Source: Bacillota bacterium
GTDB taxonomy: Bacteria > Sysuimicrobiota > Sysuimicrobiia > Sysuimicrobiales > Segetimicrobiaceae
Direction: 5' to 3'
Assembly (NCBI GenBank): GCA_021324975.1
Contig: JAJPIA010000085.1
Span: forward strand, 58,006 to 122,005
DNA: 64,000 bases
The notes beneath the pieces are model-generated. The model saw only the letters and a list, made by a program, of their open reading frames with translations. It did not search any database and was not told where the DNA came from. This document shows, piece by piece, positions 3,561-64,000 of this stretch. Numbering within the stretch: the first letter of the stretch is position 1; each line of letters opens with the position of its first letter. Position numbers and translations under genes: made by a program.

Positions 3561-4526
3561 CTACGGGGCGGCCGGCCGGCCGGCCGCGAGATAGCGCGAC
3601 GGCAGCGCGTGGCCGAGCAAGGCGGCGAGCGGCCGCGAGGCTTCGCAGAGGCGGTCGAGGTCCACGCCCGTCTCGATGTCCATCCCGTCGAGCATGTACA
3701 CGAGATCCTCCGTGGCGAGGTTCCCCGAGGCGCCGGGCGCGTACGGGCATCCCCCGAGCCCGCCCGCGGCCGCATCGATCGTGGTGACGCCGCTCCACAG
3801 CGCGGTCAGGACGTTCGCGAGGGCCGTGCCTCTGGTATCGTGGAAGTGCACGGCGAGCGATCGAACCGGAACGTCCCGAACGAGCCGATCCAGCAGCGCC
3901 CACACCTCGTGCGGTGTGGCGGCGCCGATCGTGTCCCCGAGCGACACCTCGCGGCAGCCCATCTCGAGCAGGCGGCCGGCCACGCGGCGCACGGCATCCG
4001 ACCCAACGCGGCCCTCATACGGACACCACCAGGCGGTCGAGACGTAGGCACGCACGTGGGCGCCGTTCGCGGCGGCGAGGTCCACCACGCCCCGCGCGGC
4101 GCCGAGCGATTCGTCGATGCTCATATTGATGTTGCGCCGCGTAAAGGTCTCGGACGCCGCGGTGAACACCGCCACGTCCCTGAGGCCGCAGGCCATCGCT
4201 CGGACCATGCCGACCTGGTTCGGCACGAGCGCGGACAACTCGACCCCCTCCAGGGCGCCGAGGCGGCGCACCACGGCGTCCGTATCGGCCATCTGCGGCA
4301 CCCGATCCGGCCGTACGAACGCGCCGACCTCGATGGCCCGGAGCCCCGCGGCCGCGAGCCGGGAGATAAAGGCGACCTTGTCGGCGACGGTGAGCGGAGT
4401 GGATTCGTTTTGGAGGCCGTCGCGCGGGCCCACCTCGACGATCCGCACCCGTCCGGGCAGCCCGGCAAACGGCGTCGGCCGGAGCCGCGCGGGGCGCGTG
4501 GCCTCCACGACGGAGCCGACTGCCAT
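3561..4526 (-). CDS. Hydroxymethylglutaryl-CoA lyase
   Basis: ORF 3561..4967 trimmed to the ATG at 4526 (MAVGSVVE...). Motifs are VEVGPRDGLQNE, HFHDTRGTALAN and GLGGCPYAPGASGN. The start overlaps the upstream stop as TGATG. Confidence 0.9.
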   Translation of the reverse strand: MAVGSVVEATRPARLRPTPFAGLPGRVRIVEVGPRDGLQNESTPLTVADKVAFISRLAAAGLRAIEVGAFVRPDRVPQMADTDAVVRRLGALEGVELSALVPNQVGMVRAMACGLRDVAVFTAASETFTRRNINMSIDESLGAARGVVDLAAANGAHVRAYVSTAWWCPYEGRVGSDAVRRVAGRLLEMGCREVSLGDTIGAATPHEVWALLDRLVRDVPVRSLAVHFHDTRGTALANVLTALWSGVTTIDAAAGGLGGCPYAPGASGNLATEDLVYMLDGMDIETGVDLDRLCEASRPLAALLGHALPSRYLAAGRPAAP

Positions 4527-53992: not shown

Positions 53993-54519
53993 TCACCCTG
54001 CCGCATGATGTCGCGGTCCCGGAGCTCGTTGGCCTCGCGCCACGCCTGGATCTCGCGAGGGGTGAGCCGCAGGTAAACGTAGCTTTCCATCAAACGTCTC
54101 GGGTCGAACCCGGTCGCCCGAGCGAACCCGTCCTCGAGCGCCGCATCGGCGCCCATCGCGACGACTTCCACGGCTCCCTCGATGATGACGACATCCCTGG
54201 TCGGTCCAAGCGCCACGCGCGCCCAACGGGCGCGGATGAGGTTCCGGACGGTGCGGCTTGCCTGCGGCGTCGAGAGGATCAGCGCCCGGCCGTCCCAGTA
54301 GTAGGAAAACGGGACGAGGTGTGCGCGTCCGTTCCCATCCGCGGTGGCGACCCAGAGGTCGCCTCCTCCTCGCAACTTCTCGACCACCTCTACCACCTCA
54401 TGAAGGTGGGCGGCAGCCTGTCCAATCGCAGCTCCTGCAACACGGGGTGACCCGATGGTCGCGCGCCCGTCCAGTCCCCCCAAAGAGGACTGGACGCGAT
54501 ATCCAAGACGTGACCACAC
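53980..54519 (-). CDS. Pyridoxamine 5'-phosphate oxidase (PPOX)-fold / F420- or FMN-binding family protein
   Basis: LWVATADGNGRAHLVPFSYYWDGRALILST...VALGPTRDVVIIEG fits the split-barrel PPOX family. The N-terminal 30-40 aa of the ORF look non-native, so the true start is probably internal (for example a GTG in HEVVEVV). Confidence 0.6.
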   Translation of the reverse strand: MWSRLGYRVQSSLGGLDGRATIGSPRVAGAAIGQAAAHLHEVVEVVEKLRGGGDLWVATADGNGRAHLVPFSYYWDGRALILSTPQASRTVRNLIRARWARVALGPTRDVVIIEGAVEVVAMGADAALEDGFARATGFDPRRLMESYVYLRLTPREIQAWREANELRDRDIMRQGEWLE

Positions 54520-54558
54520 ATATCCTTACGCGATGGCAGCAGACCAGCACGCTGCCCG

Positions 54559-56109
54559 CTAATGAGCCGTGAGCCGCACCCGTCGGACGTCGATCTTGCC
54601 GTCCGGCTGTAGGACCGCTCCCGTAATGCTGGTGCGTTCGCCGGCAAGCGACTCCGAGTTGTAGAGGAAGATCGACGGCGCGTCGCGCCAGATGAGATGC
54701 AGGACGTCCCCATAGTCCTTGTTTCGGGCCGCCTGGTTCGCGGTCGCGAGACCCGCGGCGAGGAGCGCATCAACTTGCGGGTCACTATAGAAGCCGATGT
54801 TGAACAATGCCGGCGGCCACGACTCGGTTGCAAAGAGCGGACGCAGTCCCCAGTCGGCATCCAGCGTCGCCGGCGCCCATCCAAACAGGCTCATCTCGGT
54901 CTGGCTCCTGTCGGACGGAGCCGCCCACAGCGCGGAGAGAATCCCCGCCTCCATCGGCTGCAGGCGCACGCTCACGCCGACGCGGGCGAGCATTTGCTGC
55001 ACGGCTTCGCCGACGCGCTGGGTTTCCGTGTCGGTGCCCTCAGCCAAGGTGGCGGCAAAGCCGTTCGGGTAGCCGGCTTCCGCCAAGAGCGCCTTGGCTT
55101 TGGCCACGTCGTACGGCCATCCATGTGCCTGAACCGGCGCGTATCCGACGATCCCCGGCGCAGCCGGTGCGTCGAGCGGCCGGCCGTATCCGCGCAGGAC
55201 CACCTGCACGATCGCGGTCTTGTCCACGGCATAGTTCAGGGCCTGGCGCACGGCCGGCTTGTCGAATGGCGCCCGGTGATTGTTGAGCGCGACGTAGAAT
55301 GCATAGTCGCTCCAGCGCTTGAGCAGCGATACGCCGGGCGCCCTCGAGACCGCATCCGCCTCCACACCGGGGACGGCAAAGGCAAACTGCGCGTCGCCGC
55401 TGAGCAGCATGGCCACACGCGACGCGTCCTCGGTGACCGGCTTGAAGACGATGCGGTCGACCTCGGGTTGGCCGCGCTGCCAGTATCCGCCGCTTCGTTC
55501 GAGCGTGATGTCCTGTCCGGGATTCCACCGGACGAACTTGAACGGGCCCGTGCCGACCGGGTTGCGCGCGATATACTGCTCGCCTTTCGCGATGGCCGCG
55601 GGGCTGATGATGCGGCTTGCGGCGTGGGAAAAGTTGTACATCATTGCGCCGAACGGCTTCGCCAGCATGAACCGGACCGTCCAGTCATCGACAGCGTCGA
55701 TCGAAGCGATGTTCTCATAGAGGTTGCGCCGGATCAGCTTGTTCGCGGGACCCCTGGCGCGGTCGAAATTGATCTTCACGGCCTGGGCGTTGAAGGGCGT
55801 GCCGTCCTGGAACGTCACCCCGCGTCGGAGATGGAATGTATACACGCGAGCGTCCGGTGACACGTCCCATGACGTCGCGAGCTCCGGAACGAACTTCAAG
55901 TCGGGCGAGATCCCGACGAGCCCGTCGTACACCTCGCGCTCGATGGAATACGTGAGGTTGTCGTTTGTGTTCTCGGGATCCAGCGAGATCGCGTCCGCGT
56001 AGAGCGCCACCGTGACCGTCCGCAACTGCTGTGCCGCGGTCGTCTGCCACGGCATGATGCCGATCATCGCCGCTAACGGCCCTGCCACGAGTAGAAGGAC
56101 AGTCCTCAC
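54559..56109 (-). CDS. ABC transporter substrate-binding protein, family 5 (orphan, no adjacent permeases or ATPases)
   Basis: ORF 54559..56136 with the preferred GTG start at 56109 (VRTVLLLVAGPLAAMIG... signal), 7 nt after SD GAGGGAGGG. SBP_bac_5 body (LATSWDVSPDARVYTFHLRRGVTFQDG). Confidence 0.82.
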   Translation of the reverse strand: MRTVLLLVAGPLAAMIGIMPWQTTAAQQLRTVTVALYADAISLDPENTNDNLTYSIEREVYDGLVGISPDLKFVPELATSWDVSPDARVYTFHLRRGVTFQDGTPFNAQAVKINFDRARGPANKLIRRNLYENIASIDAVDDWTVRFMLAKPFGAMMYNFSHAASRIISPAAIAKGEQYIARNPVGTGPFKFVRWNPGQDITLERSGGYWQRGQPEVDRIVFKPVTEDASRVAMLLSGDAQFAFAVPGVEADAVSRAPGVSLLKRWSDYAFYVALNNHRAPFDKPAVRQALNYAVDKTAIVQVVLRGYGRPLDAPAAPGIVGYAPVQAHGWPYDVAKAKALLAEAGYPNGFAATLAEGTDTETQRVGEAVQQMLARVGVSVRLQPMEAGILSALWAAPSDRSQTEMSLFGWAPATLDADWGLRPLFATESWPPALFNIGFYSDPQVDALLAAGLATANQAARNKDYGDVLHLIWRDAPSIFLYNSESLAGERTSITGAVLQPDGKIDVRRVRLTAH

Positions 56110-56224
56110 CGGCGCACCCTCCCTCGCATGGCCCAACCTCGTGCCGCACGGCCCCGTTCTGGTGGGGCGCGGGGTTTTCCTTTTACTAACGCTCTCGGCT
56201 TGAAGACATGGCGCCGATGCCGCT

Positions 56225-56680
56225 TTAACTTGATGATTCCAGTGTCTGCACCAGCTTCACCAGGGCTTGTCGCGCGTCCGGCCATCGCAGCATGCCGACC
56301 GCTTCGTCTATCGGGAACCAGCCATACTGATCGTGCTCATCGTTCAGCTGAGGGTCCCAATTGATGCCCACCCGACCGGCAAATGCGTCGACCGTCACGG
56401 ACGTCACGTCCGGCGCGTACCAGGCGCGATATTCGGGCTCATCGTCGAGCATGTAGGCATAGCGGTGTTTGAGGTCGATAAGGCGATCTCCGAGCATCAG
56501 GCCCGTTTCCTCGCGTGTCTCCCGCACGGCCGCCTGGGCGCTCGTCTCCCCCGGATGCAACGCACCCGCGACGCCATGCCAGTATGCGCCTGCTGTGGGA
56601 GCGCGGTGAAGCAGCAGGACCTCATATCGCTCATTAACGCGCCGGTAGAGAAACACCAAACATTCGTGGGGAAGTCTCAC
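56225..56680 (-). CDS. Nudix hydrolase
   Basis: ORF 56225..56743 trimmed to the GTG at 56680 (SD GAAAGGA 6 nt upstream). Nudix box GALHPGETSAQAAVRETREETGL (GX5EX7REUXEEXGU). Confidence 0.85.
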   Translation of the reverse strand: MRLPHECLVFLYRRVNERYEVLLLHRAPTAGAYWHGVAGALHPGETSAQAAVRETREETGLMLGDRLIDLKHRYAYMLDDEPEYRAWYAPDVTSVTVDAFAGRVGINWDPQLNDEHDQYGWFPIDEAVGMLRWPDARQALVKLVQTLESSS

Positions 56681-56749
56681 GGTGGTCCTTTCGTCGTAGC
56701 GACTAGAGCGCCTTCCTACGCTGGCTTCCCCGGGGCGACACATACTGCA

Positions 56750-58276
56750 CTAATCATTTACAAACGCGCAGCCGCCGCGGGCCTTGCGCCCGAATACTTT
56801 TTTGTAGAGATCCTCGCCGTACGTGGTTTGCAGCGGCTCGCCTGGGACTACCTTGAACGTCCGGGTCCCACCCGGCCGCCGCTCCGCCCTTAGAAAGAGC
56901 GCATCTTCACTCCGCCGAGCGTGGAGGCCGTGCGCGAATGCGTACAAGTGCGTGACAAAAAAGACTTTGATGCCGCGCTCGGCGAGCGCCGAGGTGATCT
57001 GCCGTGCGATCTCCGAGCCCTCCCGCTCGTTCGTCGCCGCGAAGGATTCGTTGAACAGCATGAGCGCGTTGGGGTGGATCCGGTCTGCGATGTCGCTCAT
57101 GCGGCTGAGCTCTTCGTCGAATTTGCCGCTCTTCATGGACGGGTCTTCTTCCCGCTTGTAATGCGTGAAGAGACCGGAACACACATTGGCCCGGAACGAC
57201 GCGGCGGGCACGAACATACCGCACTGCATCATCAGCTGCGCCAGGCCGACACTGCGCAGAAAGGTGGACTTGCCGCCCTGGTTGGCGCCTGTGATGATCA
57301 CCGTGGTCCGGCCGTCGGCGTCCACGTCGTTGCCCACCACCCGCGATCCCACGGTCAGGCTCAAGCACACGTCGTACAGTCCGGCAAACGCATGCCGGCG
57401 TTGGTCCGCCCGCTCGGGAACGGGGAAGCATACCGGCTCGCCCTTGCGCGTGAGGTGCTCGTGGAGGTTCAGGCAGCCGACGTAGAAGGCCAGCTCGGCC
57501 CGCAGCATGGCGAAGAAGCTGAGGACGTGGTCGGCGGACTGCCCGAGCGCGTTCGCAACCAAGGCCACGCCTCGGTCCCGCAAGTCCGACAGGGCTCTCG
57601 CGCCCGCCTCGTCGCGGGGATGCAGGCGGTAGCTGTACGCCGGCGGCTTTTGCGCGAAGATGCGCTCGACCCAGCTCTGCGTGGTGTCGTGCGGCTTTCG
57701 GAGCACGTAGTTTGCGCCTTTGAGCCCCTGCCCCAATTCCGCGCTGACCAGCATGCCCTCGCGGAAGCGAAGCCGTCGCAGATGATCCCGAAGCTTGATG
57801 AAATAGCCGTCGTCGAGCTCGCGCCTGAGCGTTGCGAACAACCGCGTAAACCCCTCCGATTGGAACTCGTTGCCGTGCTCGTCGGCGACCTGTCGGAGGC
57901 GCCTGAGCAGGCCCTCGAATGCACCCAGCAAGTCCAGCGAGCGATGCAGGATGGTCCCTGGAGATCGAAAGACGGTCCAGTACCTCAGCTTCCGCTCTTC
58001 CAAGAACGCCTCGGTTGCGAGGCTATAGAGGCTTCGGACCGCGGCGGCGTTGTGGAGGCCATCCCGCAGCACGTCCTGCCGGTATCGGATCGCGTCCACG
58101 TCCGTCAAGCTGTCCAGCACGGCCGTCTGCACGACGCCGCGCACGAACTCATCGCCTCCTGCCATAGCGCCAAAGAGCGTGGCGAGTTCGAGATCCTGTG
58201 TGAGCGCCGGCGTATTCCACGGCAGCGGAGGTTGTACATCGAAATCACGATTGCGGTGCAGGAGGAATACCTTCAC
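56750..58276 (-). CDS. MutS-related ATPase (MutS domain V only, no mismatch-binding domain), subunit B
   Basis: 508-aa ORF with MutS-type Walker A ITGANQGGKSTFLRSVGLAQLMMQCGMFVPA, followed by MSDIADRIHPNALMLFNESFAATNEREG. There is no GxFxE mismatch-recognition N-domain. GTGA overlap with the upstream paralog. Confidence 0.85.
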   Translation of the reverse strand: MKVFLLHRNRDFDVQPPLPWNTPALTQDLELATLFGAMAGGDEFVRGVVQTAVLDSLTDVDAIRYRQDVLRDGLHNAAAVRSLYSLATEAFLEERKLRYWTVFRSPGTILHRSLDLLGAFEGLLRRLRQVADEHGNEFQSEGFTRLFATLRRELDDGYFIKLRDHLRRLRFREGMLVSAELGQGLKGANYVLRKPHDTTQSWVERIFAQKPPAYSYRLHPRDEAGARALSDLRDRGVALVANALGQSADHVLSFFAMLRAELAFYVGCLNLHEHLTRKGEPVCFPVPERADQRRHAFAGLYDVCLSLTVGSRVVGNDVDADGRTTVIITGANQGGKSTFLRSVGLAQLMMQCGMFVPAASFRANVCSGLFTHYKREEDPSMKSGKFDEELSRMSDIADRIHPNALMLFNESFAATNEREGSEIARQITSALAERGIKVFFVTHLYAFAHGLHARRSEDALFLRAERRPGGTRTFKVVPGEPLQTTYGEDLYKKVFGRKARGGCAFVND

Positions 58277-59844
58277 GATCCGATCCGCCGTTTCAGTTGA
58301 TCATAGGTGACCCGGTATCTCTCGGCAATCGACAGCGCGTAGGCGAGCCCGTCGGCCGCCGTTCTCACGACCTTGTAGGTGCGGACCGCGGGGTTGTCCG
58401 GGACGACGGCACTTACCATGCTGACGGTCTGCTCGCCGAGCGACGCCAGCTCGTCGATGAACGTGACGCACACGCACAGTAGGTCCAAGCGCATGATGGC
58501 GCCCATAATGTTCCGGCTCAGGAGGATGGCGTCGTCCAACACCGTCGACGTGAAGATCTCGTTCAGGATGATGATGCTGTCCGGTGTTGCCTGGTTCAGG
58601 ATCTTACGGATCCTCGCCAGGTCGTCTTCGAGCTTGCCCCGGAGCGTGGTGATGTCTTCTTCGCGCTCAAAGTGCGTGAAGAGCGCGTCGAACAGAAAGG
58701 TTCGCGCCTCCGTCCCGGCGACCGGGCAGCCGAGGCGGGCCAAATAGTGAAGTTGTCCGAACGTGCGGGCAAGCGTGGTCTTGCCGCCCTGGTTCGGACC
58801 GGATACCACGAGGATACGCTCGGGTCCGCGAAGGTAGAAGTCGTTGCAGACCACCGGCGACTTTTCCGGAATCAGCAGCTGGGCCAGGGCGAAGTCGTAG
58901 CCGTCGCGGCACAGCACGGCCTTGCTCTTGGAAACGCGCGGATAACACACGCTCAAGCCCGCGTTCCGGAACCGCGCGACGTACTCGAGGTACGCGATGT
59001 AAAATTGGATCTCCCGGTCAAAGGTGCGGATGACGCCGTCCTGGTATTCGCGGTGCTCGGTCCGGAACTCGTCGAGGCGGCGAAACTCCTCCGGCCACAG
59101 TTGGGCGGCGAACCCGACCACGGCGGCTTCGATGTGGTTCATGTCTCGCGCGCTGGTGAAGGAGACCGCGTAGTCGGTCACCGCGCCCTGCTTGAATCGC
59201 TCGAACGCTTGGACCACGTCGGCGCTGTAGTCGGCTTCGCCTTCGTACCGGCGGACGGTGAAACTGTCGCCCCGGATCAGGATGCAGTAGCGGATCGTGG
59301 CCAACCCTTGCTTGACCGATTGGATGTCCGCGACGAGCGATTGGAAGCGGTCAGACGCCACGTAACCCCGTAGATAGTCGCGGAACGCGACGAGGCCCCT
59401 TGCTCGCAACGGGGCGCCGTCCAAATCATGGGCCAGGGCGGTGGCGGTCTCGCAATAGAGCGCCGCCGCGTCCAGAAACCAGCTGTCCCTTTGCTGCTGA
59501 TAGTAGAACTTCTCGGCCTGCGTCAGGTGCTCGCGCATGGTCCGCATACGCTGCGCGAACGCCCGCAGGCACTCCAACACCGGGACGCGTTCGAGGTCCT
59601 GAAACACGTCGTGCCGGTACTCGATGTCGTCGAGGGTATCGAGCGGAGCGTGGAAGAACGGCCTGAGATTGTACTCGTCCTTGCCGGCCGTGACCGCTTC
59701 AACGATTTGGTCGAGATTGAGATCGGGAAAGCATTCGGGTACCTCGCCCCGCTCGACGCGCCCCTCGACTCTTTGCCATAAGATGCTGCGGAACGACGCC
59801 TCGGTGGCGGCGACGTCGGCCGGATGGATGGGGTTCGTGGCCAT
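58273..59844 (-). CDS. MutS-related ATPase (MutS domain V only), subunit A
   Basis: ORF 58273..59880 trimmed to the ATG at 59844 (MATNPIHPADV...), with SD GGAGG 10 nt upstream. Walker A VSGPNQGGKTTLARTFGQLHYLARLGCPVAG; SIIILNEIFTSTVLDD. The longer TTG start would lie inside the terminator U-tract. Confidence 0.85.
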   Translation of the reverse strand: MATNPIHPADVAATEASFRSILWQRVEGRVERGEVPECFPDLNLDQIVEAVTAGKDEYNLRPFFHAPLDTLDDIEYRHDVFQDLERVPVLECLRAFAQRMRTMREHLTQAEKFYYQQQRDSWFLDAAALYCETATALAHDLDGAPLRARGLVAFRDYLRGYVASDRFQSLVADIQSVKQGLATIRYCILIRGDSFTVRRYEGEADYSADVVQAFERFKQGAVTDYAVSFTSARDMNHIEAAVVGFAAQLWPEEFRRLDEFRTEHREYQDGVIRTFDREIQFYIAYLEYVARFRNAGLSVCYPRVSKSKAVLCRDGYDFALAQLLIPEKSPVVCNDFYLRGPERILVVSGPNQGGKTTLARTFGQLHYLARLGCPVAGTEARTFLFDALFTHFEREEDITTLRGKLEDDLARIRKILNQATPDSIIILNEIFTSTVLDDAILLSRNIMGAIMRLDLLCVCVTFIDELASLGEQTVSMVSAVVPDNPAVRTYKVVRTAADGLAYALSIAERYRVTYDQLKRRIGS

Positions 59845-59873
59845 TAGCAATGAGCCTCCAACCCAGCGAGCGG

Positions 59874-59913
59874 ACAACAAAAAAGCCTCTACGGTCTCGC
59901 GATCCCGTAGAAG
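59874..59913 (-). terminator. Intrinsic terminator acting as expression platform of the minus-strand fluoride riboswitch
   Basis: Minus-strand RNA CUUCUACGG-GAUCGCGAGA-CCGUAGAGG, a 9-bp stem with one G-U pair, followed by CUUUUUUGUUGU. The 5' arm reuses the aptamer pseudoknot strand GCUUCUAC. It ends about 30 nt before the ATG at 59844. Confidence 0.85.
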
Positions 59914-59962
59914 CTATCGGTCGCCGGACACCCCGGCGACGGTTTAGGCGAGCTTCATCGCC
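59907..59962 (-). promoter_or_regulatory. Fluoride riboswitch aptamer (crcB RNA motif), minus strand
   Basis: RNA GGCGA-UGAAGC-UCGCC-UAAAC-C-GUCGCCGG-GGUGU-CCGGCGAC-CGAUA-GCUUC-UAC. It has a P1 hairpin, an AAAC linker, a P3 hairpin and a GAUA...CUAC 3' tail. The tail GCUUC pairs with loop GAAGC as a pseudoknot. This is the architecture and conserved nucleotides I recall for the crcB motif. Confidence 0.88.
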
Positions 59963-59981
59963 TCGGATCTCGTGCGCTCAC

Positions 59982-60011
59982 ATTATAGGGGCGTCGAAAA
60001 GACTCCGTCAA
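59982..60011 (-). promoter_or_regulatory. Sigma-70-type promoter for the riboswitch/MutS-like transcript
   Basis: On the minus strand: TTGACG (60011..60006), 18-nt spacer, TATAAT (59987..59982). The predicted TSS is about 12 nt upstream of aptamer P1. Confidence 0.7.
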
Positions 60012-60206: not shown

Positions 60207-60217
60207 GAACGCATCAC

Positions 60218-60266
60218 GGTGATGAGGCTCACCGAAACTGCCGGGCGACCGGCTGATAGCCTCTAC
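60218..60266 (+). promoter_or_regulatory. Fluoride riboswitch aptamer (crcB RNA motif), plus strand
   Basis: RNA GGUGA-UGAGGC-UCACC-GAAAC-U-GCCGG-GCGA-CCGGC-UGAUA-GCCUC-UAC. It has the same architecture as the minus-strand copy, with pseudoknot GAGGC/GCCUC and a GNRA-capped P3. The GAUGAGGC...AAACUGCC...GCUGAU.GCCUCUAC string closely matches the well-studied Thermotoga aptamer as I remember it. Confidence 0.88.
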
Positions 60267-60296
60267 CCGGTACGGGCGGGGGCTTCTGCATGTGTG
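60259..60296 (+). terminator. Candidate terminator/expression platform of the plus-strand riboswitch
   Basis: GCCUCUACCCG-GUA-CGGGCGGGGGC, an 11-position stem with one A.C mismatch and two G-U pairs, followed by UUCUGCAUGUGU. The 5' arm again contains the pseudoknot strand. The U-tract is weak. Confidence 0.45.
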
Positions 60297-60486
60297 GCGG
60301 CCTCTCCCCTCGTGCTTCCTCCGATTACGCGCCGACTTGCGATTCACGGATACGCGCGCCGCGTATGCCGCGGGCGCGCCGACCAAGAGAACGTGCCGCC
60401 GTGACGAAGGATCCGTGTATCGCGTTTCTCACGGAGTCGCAGATGTTTACGAGCAATGCCACGAACTCAGGGGGACATTCCCTATC

Positions 60487-61740
60487 ATGGCGGTTCCCGT
60501 AGCCCGGCCGGCAGGCCGGGAAGCGGCCCGCGCCGCGGCGCTCCGGTTCGTGGTGCTGCTGGGCGTCGTGAGCATGTTCTCCGACATGACGCACGAGGGC
60601 GCCCGCGGCATCACGGGGCCGTTTCTGGGCATGCTCGGGGCGAGCGCGCTGATCGTGGCGACCGTCGCGGGCGTCGGGGAGTTCTTGGGGTATGCGCTGC
60701 GCTTTCTGTTCGGTTCCCTGGCCGACCGGACCGGCATGTATTGGCCGATTACCTTGGTTGGATATACGATTCAAATGCTGGCCGTTCCGGCGCTCGCGCT
60801 GGTGGGGCATTGGCCGGCCGCGGCGCTGTTGATCGTGACGGAACGCTCCGGGCGGGCCATGCGAAATCCGCCGCGGGATGCAATGCTCGCACACGCCACT
60901 TGCGGGCTCGGCGCGGGCTGGGTCTTTGGCCTGCGCGAAGCGCTGGACGCGGCCGGCGCGATGATCGGCCCCCTGATCGTGGCGGCAACCGTTTACGTGC
61001 GAGGGGGGTATCGGTTGGGCTTCGCGGTCCTGATCGTCCCCGCGTTGCTCACCCTCATCGTACTCCTGAGCGCCTGGCGGCAGTATCCCCGACCGCACGA
61101 CCTCGGCGCCCCAGAGCGCATCCCGCAGGCCGCGGGTATCCCGCGTGTGTTTTGGATCTACCTGGGGGGCATGGCGCTCGTCGCGGCAGCCTATGTCGAC
61201 TACCCGCTCGCGGCGTATCACTTCGCCAGGAGCGGCGCGGTGCCACCCGCCTGGATCCCGATCTTGTATGCGGTAGCCATGGCAGCCGAAGCGGCCGGGG
61301 CGCTCGCGCTCGGGCGTCTCTTCGACCGCATCGGCCTCGCCACCGTGGTGTGGGCGACGGCGGCCACCGCGTTCTTCGGGCCGTTCATCTTCCTCGGCAA
61401 CACCGTGCTCGTTGTTCTCGGAATGGTCCTGTGGGGACTGGGCATAGCGGCGCAAGAGTCCGTTGTCAAAGCCGCCGTTACCGGCATGGTCGGCGCCGAG
61501 CGGCGAGCGTCTGCCTACGGTCTCTTCGACGCCGGCTTTGGCACGGCATGGATGCTCGGGAGCGTCGCGCTCGGGGTACTCTACAACCTGTCCGTGTACG
61601 CGCTGGTCGCCTTCACGGTGCTGCTGCAGCTCGCCGCGCTCCCTGTCTTCGCGGCGACCAGGCGGGCCATGCCAACGGAGCCTGTCCAAGGGCGGAGCCG
61701 CGGCAACTTCCCTGGGAACCGCGGTGACGGCACACGCTAA
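60487..61740 (+). CDS. Major facilitator superfamily (MFS) transporter
   Basis: ORF 60292..61740 trimmed to the ATG at 60487 (MAVPVARPAGREAARAAALRFVVLLGVVSMFSDMTHEG...), with AGGGGGA upstream. It has about 12 hydrophobic segments with a central loop. It is the only plus-strand gene in the window. Confidence 0.8.
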   Translation: MAVPVARPAGREAARAAALRFVVLLGVVSMFSDMTHEGARGITGPFLGMLGASALIVATVAGVGEFLGYALRFLFGSLADRTGMYWPITLVGYTIQMLAVPALALVGHWPAAALLIVTERSGRAMRNPPRDAMLAHATCGLGAGWVFGLREALDAAGAMIGPLIVAATVYVRGGYRLGFAVLIVPALLTLIVLLSAWRQYPRPHDLGAPERIPQAAGIPRVFWIYLGGMALVAAAYVDYPLAAYHFARSGAVPPAWIPILYAVAMAAEAAGALALGRLFDRIGLATVVWATAATAFFGPFIFLGNTVLVVLGMVLWGLGIAAQESVVKAAVTGMVGAERRASAYGLFDAGFGTAWMLGSVALGVLYNLSVYALVAFTVLLQLAALPVFAATRRAMPTEPVQGRSRGNFPGNRGDGTR

Positions 61741-62147
61741 GCGTGGCGAGGGTTAGGACGTCCACCTCGGGCGCGCGGTCGCTCCGACGCGGCGTCGGGT
61801 AGGATCGCGGCTCGCACCCGCTCCAACGCGTCCTGGACTGCGGCCACGTCGCGTGGCGACGGTGCTTCCAATCCGTACCGCACATGACTGTACAGGTCCG
61901 TGAGCGTCTCGATGGCAACCGAAGCGGCCGGTCGATACGAGCTTACCATGTGCGCTAACTCGGCGGGCGTCTGGCTCTTGGGGCGGCGTGCTCCCAACGT
62001 GTCTGCGAGACCGAGGAACTCGGCGTACGCCCGCCGGACGATGGCGGCCGTACCAGCCCCGAAATCTTGGCCGATACCCGTGGTGTCCCGCGCGCGTCGG
62101 CGGAAGAGATCGTGCCAAGACGCACGGAGATCCGTCCAGGACCACAC
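61737..62147 (-). CDS. DUF4129 domain protein (C-terminal module normally fused to a membrane N-terminus)
   Basis: 136-aa ORF (GTG start). The pattern RRAYAEFLGLADTLGARRPKSQTPAELAHMV...LTDLYSHVRYG matches DUF4129 as I recall it. It is in frame with the upstream membrane ORF across a single TAG. Confidence 0.6.
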   Translation of the reverse strand: MWSWTDLRASWHDLFRRRARDTTGIGQDFGAGTAAIVRRAYAEFLGLADTLGARRPKSQTPAELAHMVSSYRPAASVAIETLTDLYSHVRYGLEAPSPRDVAAVQDALERVRAAILPDAASERPRARGGRPNPRHA

Positions 62148-62150
62148 CGA

Positions 62151-63299
62151 CTAGCGCACGATGTCGGCGGGGTGGCGCCGGCCCACCCGCTCATACCGAA
62201 ATACAGACCGGGCAATCAGCAGCAATACGACTGCCAGCAAGGCCAGCGCCGCCCCCCACCGTAGCGCTGCGGCCGCTTCGGGCGGTAATCCAGCCGTGTG
62301 CCCCTGAGACAATTGTTGCAGCCACGCCGCGGGCGACGGCGAGGGCATCGGCTGCACGGCGTGGGGATGCAGCATACGGCGGATCGCCCAGACAATTCCC
62401 GAGAGAACGAACCCGATCGGCACGGCGATCACATAGAGGAGCGCAAGCAGCACCGCATCCAATGCCGGCGCCACGGCGCGAAAGACAGCCGCGACATCGA
62501 GCCGCAATACGGCGCCTGCGAGCGTGGCGACGACCAGTACGGCGGCCGCGGCCCCTACCACCAGCGCGTACCAGTCCGCCGTCACCGCGGCGTTTTGCTG
62601 TGACGCGCGAGTCTGACGGTGCACGGACTGCAACCGCGCAATCGGTAGCGCGATCAGGCTGACGAGGAAGAACCCAAGCAGATACGGAAAACCGGCCGCC
62701 GCCGCGGCGGTGAGCGGAGGAACCGTGTGCCCGGCCGCCATCACGGCAGCGAACACGCCAAACGCCGCGAGCCCGAGCGTGAAGATGGTCTCGACGTCGT
62801 AGTATTCGAGCGTCGTGCGGCCGATCACGAGCGCACGGCGCCACACCAGCATCGCGAAGACCCACGCCGGCAGCTCCGGGCGTGCCCCGGCCAGGATCGA
62901 GACCAGCCACTCGCGGGCCGGGCCGTGCAGGAGGCGCCAGGCCGGATCAGCGCGGTATTGCCAGACGACGGCCAATGCCCCGGCCGCGGCGCCTCCCACG
63001 ACCAGCGCGACGCGGGCTGGCGCGATGCGCGCCCCGGCAGGGCGCGATAGGCCCGCTCGGCCCACGATTTGCCCGCCGGCAAGCAACACGCAGACGGTCA
63101 CCGGAGCGAGCAGGCTCGACGGGGCGCCGAGCCAGATCGTGCCCGCGAGGATGGCGTACGGGACAATCCACGCAGCGTCCATCGCCGCCACGAGCAACGG
63201 CAGGGTCCATCCCGGCGAGTCGGGCGCGCCGCTCCCCGCCGCAGCCGACCGGGACCTGTTCTCGGAAGGGTCCTCTCGCGTCCGCAGCACCGATCGCAT
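62151..63299 (-). CDS. Multi-pass membrane protein (N-terminal module of a DUF4129-type protein in a MoxR/DUF58 operon)
   Basis: 382-aa ORF with numerous hydrophobic helices. It starts 8 nt after the DUF58 stop and ends at a TAG that is in frame with the DUF4129 ORF. Confidence 0.7.
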   Translation of the reverse strand: MRSVLRTREDPSENRSRSAAAGSGAPDSPGWTLPLLVAAMDAAWIVPYAILAGTIWLGAPSSLLAPVTVCVLLAGGQIVGRAGLSRPAGARIAPARVALVVGGAAAGALAVVWQYRADPAWRLLHGPAREWLVSILAGARPELPAWVFAMLVWRRALVIGRTTLEYYDVETIFTLGLAAFGVFAAVMAAGHTVPPLTAAAAAGFPYLLGFFLVSLIALPIARLQSVHRQTRASQQNAAVTADWYALVVGAAAAVLVVATLAGAVLRLDVAAVFRAVAPALDAVLLALLYVIAVPIGFVLSGIVWAIRRMLHPHAVQPMPSPSPAAWLQQLSQGHTAGLPPEAAAALRWGAALALLAVVLLLIARSVFRYERVGRRHPADIVR

Positions 63300-63306
63300 C
63301 TCGGGC

Positions 63307-64000
63307 CTACGCCAGCGCTACGCGGCGCACGTCACGCCACGCGTCCTCGCCGCGCACCTCGAATACCGGGAGGTCATCGGCGGTGACCGTCCGGGCGTCC
63401 GAGCCAATCACTACGAGACCCGCGGACCTTCCCGTGCGTCTGGCCGCTCGCAGGGCTTCGACGGCTTCCGGTTCCGGCACGGCCGTGATCGCGAGCACGC
63501 TCGTCCCCCAGGGGAGGGCCGGCATCTCCGCCGCGAGCAGTTCCTCCAGCGGCGTCGTCGCCACCGGGGCCACCGTAGCGAGCGCTTCGAGCACGGTCTG
63601 CAGCTGCTGCGGATGGTCGCTCGGGGGAACGGCAATCGTCGCCATGCCCGCGCCACGGAAGCGGGGACCGTTGACGTAGAGGCCAACCGGAAGTTTCTGC
63701 TCCGCACTCCATGCGGCGACCGACGCGGCCACGATGATCGCCACCTCGACGAGCAGCGGATCGTACCCCGCCCACCAGGCGTGCCCCCGCAGCGTGTGCA
63801 TGTCCAGAAAGAGCGCAAGGCGCGGGTGGGTCGTCGGCTCGAAGATCTTGACGTGCAGCCGCCGAAGTCGGGCGGACGCCTTCCAGTGGATACGCCGGAG
63901 CGAGTCGCCGGCCTCATAGGGGCGCACGCCGGCAAGATGCGCGGGGTCCTCCCAAAGCGTGCGCGGCGCGATGAGATCTCCGAACGGGCCCTGCGCGTCC
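63307..64000 (-). CDS. DUF58 (vWA-like) protein, N-terminus beyond the window end
   Basis: The frame of ORF 63307..63927 stays open to position 64000 (DAQGPFGDLIAPRTLWEDPAHLAGVRPYEAGDSLRRIHWKASAR...). The R.Y..GD..R.I.WK block is the DUF58 hallmark. Confidence 0.8.
   Translation of the reverse strand, partial: DAQGPFGDLIAPRTLWEDPAHLAGVRPYEAGDSLRRIHWKASARLRRLHVKIFEPTTHPRLALFLDMHTLRGHAWWAGYDPLLVEVAIIVAASVAAWSAEQKLPVGLYVNGPRFRGAGMATIAVPPSDHPQQLQTVLEALATVAPVATTPLEELLAAEMPALPWGTSVLAITAVPEPEAVEALRAARRTGRSAGLVVIGSDARTVTADDLPVFEVRGEDAWRDVRRVALA

Follow-up and report, generated by a model that had tools for sequence, protein, structure and literature searches.

The MutS4 subfamily of MutS-type ATPases was defined by Lin, Nei and Ma (2007; NAR 35:7591, PMC2190696) as two adjacent genes, MutS4A and MutS4B, that overlap at the stop codon of the former and the start of the latter and encode proteins with the ATPase domain (MutSac) only. 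It was described in Thermoanaerobacter tengcongensis, the Chloroflexus group, Thermoplasma, and Ferroplasma, and its function was unstudied at that time. The mutS name was also listed among the genes located behind the crcB motif (Weinberg 2010; PMC2864571), and the type I island of Mycobacterium yongonense was reported to contain enolase, an NADH-dehydrogenase/hydrogenase complex, and MutS4A/B (Kim 2017; PMC5742357). The MutS4 operon placed in M. smegmatis raised the number of homeologous rpoB recombinants (55 vs 22 colonies), and the share of recombinants that were confirmed was 75% with the operon vs 31% (Kim 2017; PMC5742357). Here, we analyse a pair of overlapping MutS-like genes located behind a fluoride riboswitch in a 64,000-nucleotide (nt) stretch of contig JAJPIA010000085.1 from a Bacillota bacterium (assembly GCA_021324975.1), hereafter called the window. 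The pair is a member of a known family and of a known regulon; its motif asymmetry, the G-K signature, and the homology of the N-terminal halves go beyond the account given in a sequence-only reading made earlier by a model, in which the pair was taken for an obligate heterodimeric ATPase with an altered Walker B motif and no mismatch-recognition domain. What that reading observed was confirmed and extended, and its interpretation is supported.

The best sequence matches of the pair in the PDB are MutS2 structures. The MutS2 core (Thermus thermophilus, 7VUF/7VUK; Bacillus subtilis, 7QV3, on disomes) likewise lacks domains I and II and consists of about 300 residues followed by the ATPase. However, MutS2 is a homodimer with DE, STF, and TH motifs and with KOW/Smr domains, whereas MutS4 has NE and G-K motifs and differs between its two subunits at the H-loop (TH or TF). 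MutS1 contains the mismatch domain I (GxFxE) and the connector domain II, neither of which is present in the pair. The Asp-to-Asn substitution found in MutS4 at the Walker B metal ligand is identical to that in the Escherichia coli MutS D693N variant (PDB 3K0S). In D693N the Mg pocket is empty and the affinity for ATP is Mg-independent (0.5 uM vs 0.034 uM for the wild type with Mg); basal kcat is unchanged but depends far more on Mg, and the variant switches more slowly and repairs mismatches less well (Lebbink 2010; PMC2857095). However, D693N is engineered and impairs mismatch repair, whereas the Asn of MutS4 is natural, invariant, and accompanied by a Lys acting in trans. MSH2-MSH6 and the degenerate-site heterodimeric ABC ATPases consist of two paralogous subunits with two non-equivalent composite ATP sites, as is proposed here for MutS4, but they keep the Walker B Asp, and the MSH proteins also keep their mismatch-binding domains. 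A relationship to the KamC-type MutS-like reactivase (NCBIfam NF052383) was considered and rejected, as the two proteins score 79 and 34 bits against a cut-off of 300; in two other genomes, MutS2 and MutS1 score far above the MutS4 pair with this model.

The MutS4 pair and its ATP sites

The two genes and their junction are given below. The 523-amino-acid (aa) product is called the upstream protein and the 508-aa product the downstream protein, and all coordinates are those of the window.

58273..59844, minus strand: upstream MutS-like gene (MutS4A in the gene order of Lin 2007), 523 aa, MutS_V and a faint MutS_III-like N-terminal half
56750..58276, minus strand: downstream MutS-like gene (MutS4B in the gene order of Lin 2007), 508 aa, helical N-terminal half and MutS_V
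58273..58276, minus strand: GTGA stop/start overlap (translational coupling)

Both open reading frames sit where the sequence-only reading had put them (59844..58273 and 58276..56750, minus strand). The GTGA overlap that it described is real, since the N-terminus MK.FL, conserved in homologues, fixes the start of the downstream gene. The upstream gene starts with ATG at 59844, with GGAGG 10 nt before it, and an identical 523-aa protein (P0123) is present in the database. TTG at 59880, a start that would lengthen the upstream reading frame, was rejected, as this position falls within the U-run of the terminator described below.

The pair matches the MutS4A/MutS4B subfamily, i.e., an already named family and not a new one, when compared with the report of Lin 2007 by description and by elimination. 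Two adjacent paralogues lie on the same strand with a stop/start overlap, and Pfam finds MutS_V as the sole match in each protein (E-values (E) 3e-20 and 2e-14). In a Thermoanaerobacter genome, MutS1, MutS2, and a pair 57-61% identical to that of the window are the sole full-length MutS_V paralogues, which identifies the pair with MutS4 by elimination; the search there also hit a 168-aa fragment that carries an in-frame stop. No structural difference from the MutS4 of Lin 2007 was found, and the patchy distribution is common to both; however, the 2007 account is silent on fluoride control, on the Asn of Walker B, on the G-K signature, and on the asymmetry of His and Phe.

MutS_I, MutS_II, MutS_III, and MutS_IV were detected in neither protein by the Pfam hidden Markov models, even at E<=1, in line with the claim that the mismatch-binding domain is missing. 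The same holds for MutS_I, II, and IV among 71 N-terminal halves that were scanned (36 upstream-type and 35 downstream-type). MutS_III is the most frequent Pfam match in the upstream-type halves (7/36, best E 2.5e-4, sub-threshold), and in the downstream-type halves its signal is essentially nil (1/35, at E 0.18). Smr nuclease and KOW domains are likewise missing from the Pfam matches, and both proteins end soon after the ATPase domain. In NCBIfam, only far-sub-threshold matches to MutS1, MutS2, and KamC were obtained. About 300 helical residues precede MutS domain V in each protein. The N-terminal halves had been described as diverged from each other, and this stands, yet they belong to proteins that are clearly homologous to each other (hhalign 99.8%, residues 17-486 vs 31-502, 24% identity), which had not been seen. 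In hhalign comparisons of both families with 30 MutS2 sequences of the same phylum, domain V alone aligns; residues 308-513 of the upstream protein align to MutS2 residues 305-517, and because this match is collinear, the length preceding the ATPase equals that in MutS2. The AlphaFold2 model of the upstream protein contains long helices and a beta-hairpin at residues 186-199 with a local pLDDT of 75-95, and a Foldseek search with this model matched exclusively MutS, MutS2, and MSH proteins, at TM scores of 0.2-0.3 (weak support). The N-terminal half is likely a diverged region of the core/lever type; its putative homology to the MutS core rests on the sub-threshold MutS_III matches. A PDB profile match of the N-terminal half to YacP was at chance level (E 0.014) and was discarded.

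The ATP-site motifs were located in both proteins, and their conservation was counted in alignments of 198 homologues of the upstream protein and 191 of the downstream protein.

58774..58800, minus strand: Walker A GPNQGGKTT, upstream protein residues 349-357 (Lys 198/198)
58630..58641, minus strand: signature-region R-G-K-L, upstream protein residues 402-405, aligned to MutS2 S-T-F (Gly 192/198, Lys 196/198)
58552..58575, minus strand: Walker B IIILNEIF, upstream protein Asn428-Glu429 (Asn 198/198, Glu 198/198)
58459..58464, minus strand: H-loop Thr461-Phe462, upstream protein, aligned to MutS2 TH (Phe 198/198, His lost)
57263..57289, minus strand: Walker A GANQGGKST, downstream protein residues 330-338 (Lys 190/191)
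57119..57130, minus strand: signature-region S-G-K-F, downstream protein residues 383-386 (Gly 190/191, Lys 189/191)
57041..57064, minus strand: Walker B LMLFNESF, downstream protein Asn409-Glu410 (Asn 182/191, with 6 Ser and 1 Asp; Glu 188/191)
56948..56953, minus strand: H-loop Thr442-His443, downstream protein (His kept, 191/191)

The motifs quoted in the sequence-only reading are present as given, i.e., GANQGGKST with LMLFNESFAATN in the downstream protein and GPNQGGKTT with IIILNEIFTSTV in the upstream one. That the Asn occupies the true position of the Walker B Asp was shown by profile alignments of both proteins to Taq MutS, human MSH3, and T. thermophilus MutS2, which coincide exactly. 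This Asn is also conserved, in 182 of the 191 downstream-type and all 198 upstream-type homologues. Two features were added to this picture. The loop aligned with the trans-acting S-T-F signature is G-K-(L/F) in both families, and the H-loop carries His in the downstream protein and Phe in the upstream one. The latter asymmetry predicts, as far as motifs can tell, one competent and one degenerate ATP site. An ATP site of the MutS1/MutS2 type (DE, S-T-F, T-H) is not found in the pair: both proteins have NE and G-K-(L/F), and the H-loop is TH in the 508-aa protein but TF in the 523-aa one. The same genome encodes separate canonical MutS1 and MutS2, both with DE, STF, and TH, and therefore the pair adds to mismatch repair and does not replace it; the pair itself is not mismatch repair.

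The fluoride riboswitch and its recurrence across genomes

The following elements precede the upstream gene.

59982..60011, minus strand: sigma-70-like promoter TTGACG-18-TATAAT, 11/12 matches, immediately upstream of the aptamer
59901..59971, minus strand: fluoride riboswitch aptamer (crcB motif, RF01734), 38.6 bits, E 3.7e-7, full-length model match
59879..59913, minus strand: intrinsic terminator with a 9-bp stem CUUCUACGG/CCGUAGAGG, a 10-nt loop, and U6

The link to fluoride had only been assumed in the sequence-only reading, and it is now borne out by the aptamer on the same strand, whose 38.6 bits exceed the RF01734 gathering score of 34 bits and which lies in the 5′ untranslated region together with an expression platform. 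The terminator was read directly from the sequence, since the terminator scan was limited to loops of 8 nt and passed over it. Its 5′ arm and the 3′ end of the aptamer share sequence, and therefore the arrangement is, by its sequence layout, the usual design of a transcriptional ON switch.

The association was followed in a comparison set of 80 loci (808 kb), each from a different other species. Rfam detected 22 fluoride aptamers in 13 of these loci, and a covariance model built from those 22 (E<=0.01) found 126 aptamers in a search of the whole set. An aptamer is located at most 500 nt upstream on the same strand in 48 of the 80 loci, and in a further 16 it lies farther upstream in the same operon, with other regulon genes between, giving 64/80 with a same-strand upstream aptamer; at least one aptamer occurs anywhere in the locus in 66/80. 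A check within the phylum of the host found a riboswitch in four of five further loci. The association thus recurs in unrelated genomes, and fluoride induction of the pair is supported by the riboswitch found here and in most homologous loci, on the strength of such sequence matches. The likeness to the fluoride riboswitch regulon concerns the aptamer with its overlapping terminator, the presence of mutS among the associated genes, and the neighbours in other genomes (CrcB, DUF190, enolase, Na+/H+ exchanger, Usp, and FHL-type complexes). Unlike the usual members, however, the pair is neither an exporter nor a known fluoride-sensitive enzyme. A full-text literature search joining the fluoride riboswitch with MutS returned nothing relevant. 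By its gene content, the "recombination" island of M. yongonense looks like a fluoride island, and its report never mentions fluoride or a riboswitch (PMC5742357).

Each protein has at least 8000 database relatives, typically 57-67% identical across phyla, which come from Chloroflexota, Desulfobacterota, Firmicutes, Acidobacteriota, Proteobacteria, Verrucomicrobiota, Actinomycetota, Bacteroidota, and one archaeal metagenome-assembled genome. A profile search of 1.84 billion cluster representatives (clusters at 50% identity) gave 1706 clusters at E<=1e-30, and in one scan the pair was present in at least 571 species. The upstream-type gene precedes the downstream-type gene in 80/80 loci, one gene without its partner was seen in none of them, and a 4-nt ATGA/GTGA overlap is present at 71 of the 77 scorable junctions; at homologous junctions an AAGGAG Shine-Dalgarno sequence lies within the last codons of the upstream gene. 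The constant gene order and overlap, taken with catalytic motifs that complement each other asymmetrically, speak strongly, at the level of sequence, for pairing of the two proteins. The two candidate natural MutS4A-MutS4B fusions, P0288 (1026 aa) and P0332 (800 aa), turned out to be frameshifted read-throughs and not Rosetta-stone fusions.

The commonest neighbour of the pair, in 28 of 77 loci (L011, L018, L033, L040, L058, L078, and 22 others), is a dynamin-like GTPase of about 550-610 aa with Pfam Dynamin_N, a weak similarity to LeoA, and canonical GTPase motifs. It often has its own fluoride riboswitch or lies between the riboswitch and the pair; in the genome under study no homologue of it was found. 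Other recurrent neighbours are DUF190, enolase, MFS transporters, a Na+/H+ exchanger with Usp, CrcB, and Mrp/FHL-type complexes, as well as His-phosphatase, HAD, metallophosphoesterase, and P-type ATPase. As a side observation, a protein of about 145 aa without a Pfam match directly follows a riboswitch-controlled enolase gene in seven loci (L004, L005, L007 (754-1191), L013, L018, L019, and L041).

In the window, a second aptamer at 60209..60272 (plus strand, 40.6 bits) points the opposite way, towards an MFS transporter gene (60456-61727). Another back-to-back pair of riboswitches lies just outside the window, at 123558-123633 (minus) and 123798-123863 (plus) of contig C10 (32.7 and 35.4 bits, the former slightly below the gathering cut-off); in the coordinates of locus L089 these are 4059-4134 and 4299-4364. 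One of these outer riboswitches heads an operon of a MoxR AAA ATPase, DUF58, a membrane protein, and DUF4129, which reaches back into the window (about 61737-63999, minus strand), and the remaining one precedes the genes of an FHL/Mrp-type NADH-dehydrogenase-like complex. The genome has four riboswitches, all within one island of about 13 kb. A CrcB homologue was not found in this genome (96% complete), and its one CLC-family gene is located on another contig (C76) without a detected riboswitch; for these reasons, the riboswitch-controlled MFS transporter may be the fluoride exporter.

The pair is patchy within the phylum of the host (11/61 genomes; 2/4 in the genus), and GC content is 0.63-0.66 over window positions 54000-60000 vs about 0.70-0.75 elsewhere (about 0.71 for the window). 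The low local GC and the presence of the pair in only two of four genomes of the genus suggest, at the level of sequence, that the island is an accessory, horizontally moving module. One more gene follows the pair.

56225..56743, minus strand: NUDIX hydrolase gene (PF00293, E 3.7e-17), 6 nt after the pair

In this lineage alone, it probably belongs to the operon as a third gene. A NUDIX gene stands beside the pair in none of the 80 homologous loci, and neither the NUDIX nor the MFS neighbour is conserved next to the pair elsewhere in that set. NUDIX enzymes are Mg-dependent pyrophosphohydrolases and are fluoride-sensitive; the gene may be an additional copy that compensates for this, a part that enolase plays elsewhere.

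Proposed mechanism and competing explanations

It is proposed that the locus is a fluoride-induced MutS4A/MutS4B operon whose products probably act as an asymmetric heterodimer, a nucleotide-gated switch or clamp and not a fast motor. According to the invariant motif pattern, the two proteins would form two composite ATP sites. In the competent site, which would probably be hydrolytic, the downstream protein would supply Walker A/B and the H-loop His, and the upstream protein the trans G-K loop. In the degenerate site, probably slow or regulatory, the roles would be exchanged: Walker A/B and the H-loop Phe would come from the upstream protein and the G-K loop from the downstream one. At each site, the Asp-to-Asn substitution would drop one negative charge and the trans Lys would bring one positive charge, a net change of +2, which matches the Mg2+ ion missing from the D693N pocket. 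If the pair resembles that E. coli variant, Mg2+ binding would be weakened and ATP binding largely Mg-independent. Because the charge change equals that of the missing Mg2+, it is proposed that ATP-driven closure of the dimer is also largely Mg-independent, with hydrolysis being slow and Mg-tunable. DNA, in recombination or repair that must go on while fluoride disturbs Mg- and phosphate-dependent enzymes, is a possible though not a probable target, favoured because it is the default for a MutS-type protein and the subject of the sole experimental hint; the target may instead be a ribosome or a protein.

Several points weigh against this proposal. A nuclease or other DNA enzyme is never a recurrent neighbour of the pair in the loci compared; the recurrent neighbours are transporters, enolase, the dynamin-like GTPase, Usp, and FHL-type complexes. 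The sole functional experiment was a small heterologous assay carried out without fluoride (Kim 2017; PMC5742357). By hhalign, the N-terminal halves show no profile-level similarity to the MutS2 core, and since they give only sub-threshold MutS_III matches (7/36 upstream-type, 1/35 downstream-type), the clamp architecture is inferred. So is the heterodimer, as the AlphaFold2 monomer models are poor (pLDDT 46 and 55, from 18-sequence alignments).

The second debatable issue is whether the altered metal site is itself an answer to fluoride chemistry, as the sequence-only reading had suggested. In such a fluoride-proof or fluoride-responsive ATPase, Asn and the trans Lys would re-engineer the catalytic metal site, so that the transition-state mimics ADP-MgF3- and ADP-AlF4- fail to trap the enzyme, or lock it in an active closed state, making it a rescue machine for times at which other nucleoside triphosphatases (NTPases) are poisoned. 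In its favour, few members of the fluoride-riboswitch regulon are as constant across phyla as the pair, and its invariant substitutions fall exactly on the Mg ligand and on the loop facing the gamma-phosphate. In addition, D693N empties the Mg pocket in E. coli MutS, and many genes of the fluoride islands encode enzymes of phosphoryl transfer (enolase, His-phosphatase, HAD, metallophosphoesterase, P-type ATPase, and NUDIX). However, the riboswitch-linked dynamin-like GTPases retain GxxxxGKS, DTPG, and NKxD (G1, G3, and G4), and the riboswitch-linked MoxR of this genome retains LLVDEINR, with the DE Walker B. Altered Mg ligands as a general trait of fluoride-regulated NTPases were rejected on these grounds, and the rationale for the Asn is weakened by them, although from the pattern of substitutions it is plausible. 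MutS4 itself keeps the Ser/Thr of Walker A and the catalytic Glu, so hydrolysis is still expected to depend on Mg, and the Asn is equally invariant in the 14 loci without a detectable riboswitch. This explanation is considered unlikely but not negligible.

By analogy with MutS2 on collided ribosomes, the pair could also split or clear stalled ribosomes or trapped nucleotide-dependent complexes, perhaps acting with the often co-transcribed dynamin-like GTPase. We regard such a non-DNA target as rather improbable. The architecture of about 300 aa followed by a domain V collinear with the MutS2 core, in which residue 308 of the 523-aa protein corresponds to MutS2 residue 305, agrees with it, and MutS2-on-disome structures are among the top fold and sequence matches. 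The dynamin-like GTPase present in 28/77 loci often stands in the order riboswitch, GTPase, pair, but in this genome the partner has no homologue. Moreover, the KOW and Smr domains that recruit MutS2 to the ribosome are absent from the pair, and nothing ties the pair to ribosomal genes.

It might also be considered that the proteins form separate homodimers and that the overlap is merely a tandem duplication kept in one operon, as MutS1 and MutS2 are homodimers and the two proteins are paralogues of equal architecture. This is very unlikely: gene order and the 4-nt overlap are retained in nearly all loci of many phyla, no locus among the 80 has one gene without the other, and the invariant reciprocal asymmetry (His vs Phe) resembles heterodimeric ABC ATPases with one degenerate site. 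Finally, the pair might be the MutS-like ATPases of an anti-phage or conflict system. The patchy range resembling horizontal transfer (11/61 phylum genomes, 2/4 in the genus) and the regional GC of 0.63 vs about 0.71 for the window might speak for this reading, but it is hardly credible and was rejected, as neither protein has a PADLOC match, control is by a riboswitch, and the neighbours are all fluoride-regulon genes.

A possible role of MutS4 in fluoride resistance

The regulon of the fluoride riboswitch is best known for exporters and enolase; a MutS-like pair has been in its gene lists since 2010 and was named MutS4 in 2007. Work on the phylogeny of MutS4, on the genes listed behind the crcB motif, and on the "recombination" island of M. 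yongonense had formed three separate literatures, which the analysis joins. The pair is very common and unusually conserved for proteins spread across phyla (57-67% identity), and its invariant pattern of a Walker B Asn, a trans Lys, and one His-less site offers concrete hypotheses that are open to tests by mutation. A more far-reaching idea, which we consider doubtful, is that MutS4AB is a dedicated fluoride-stress NTPase that recognises and frees proteins trapped on DNA or ribosomes as nucleoside diphosphate-metal-fluoride complexes. If this is true, then the metal site built of Asn and the trans Lys would let MutS4AB bind and use ATP while Mg-fluoride chemistry poisons ordinary ATPases and GTPases, and MutS4AB would be a second, repair-type arm of fluoride resistance beside export.

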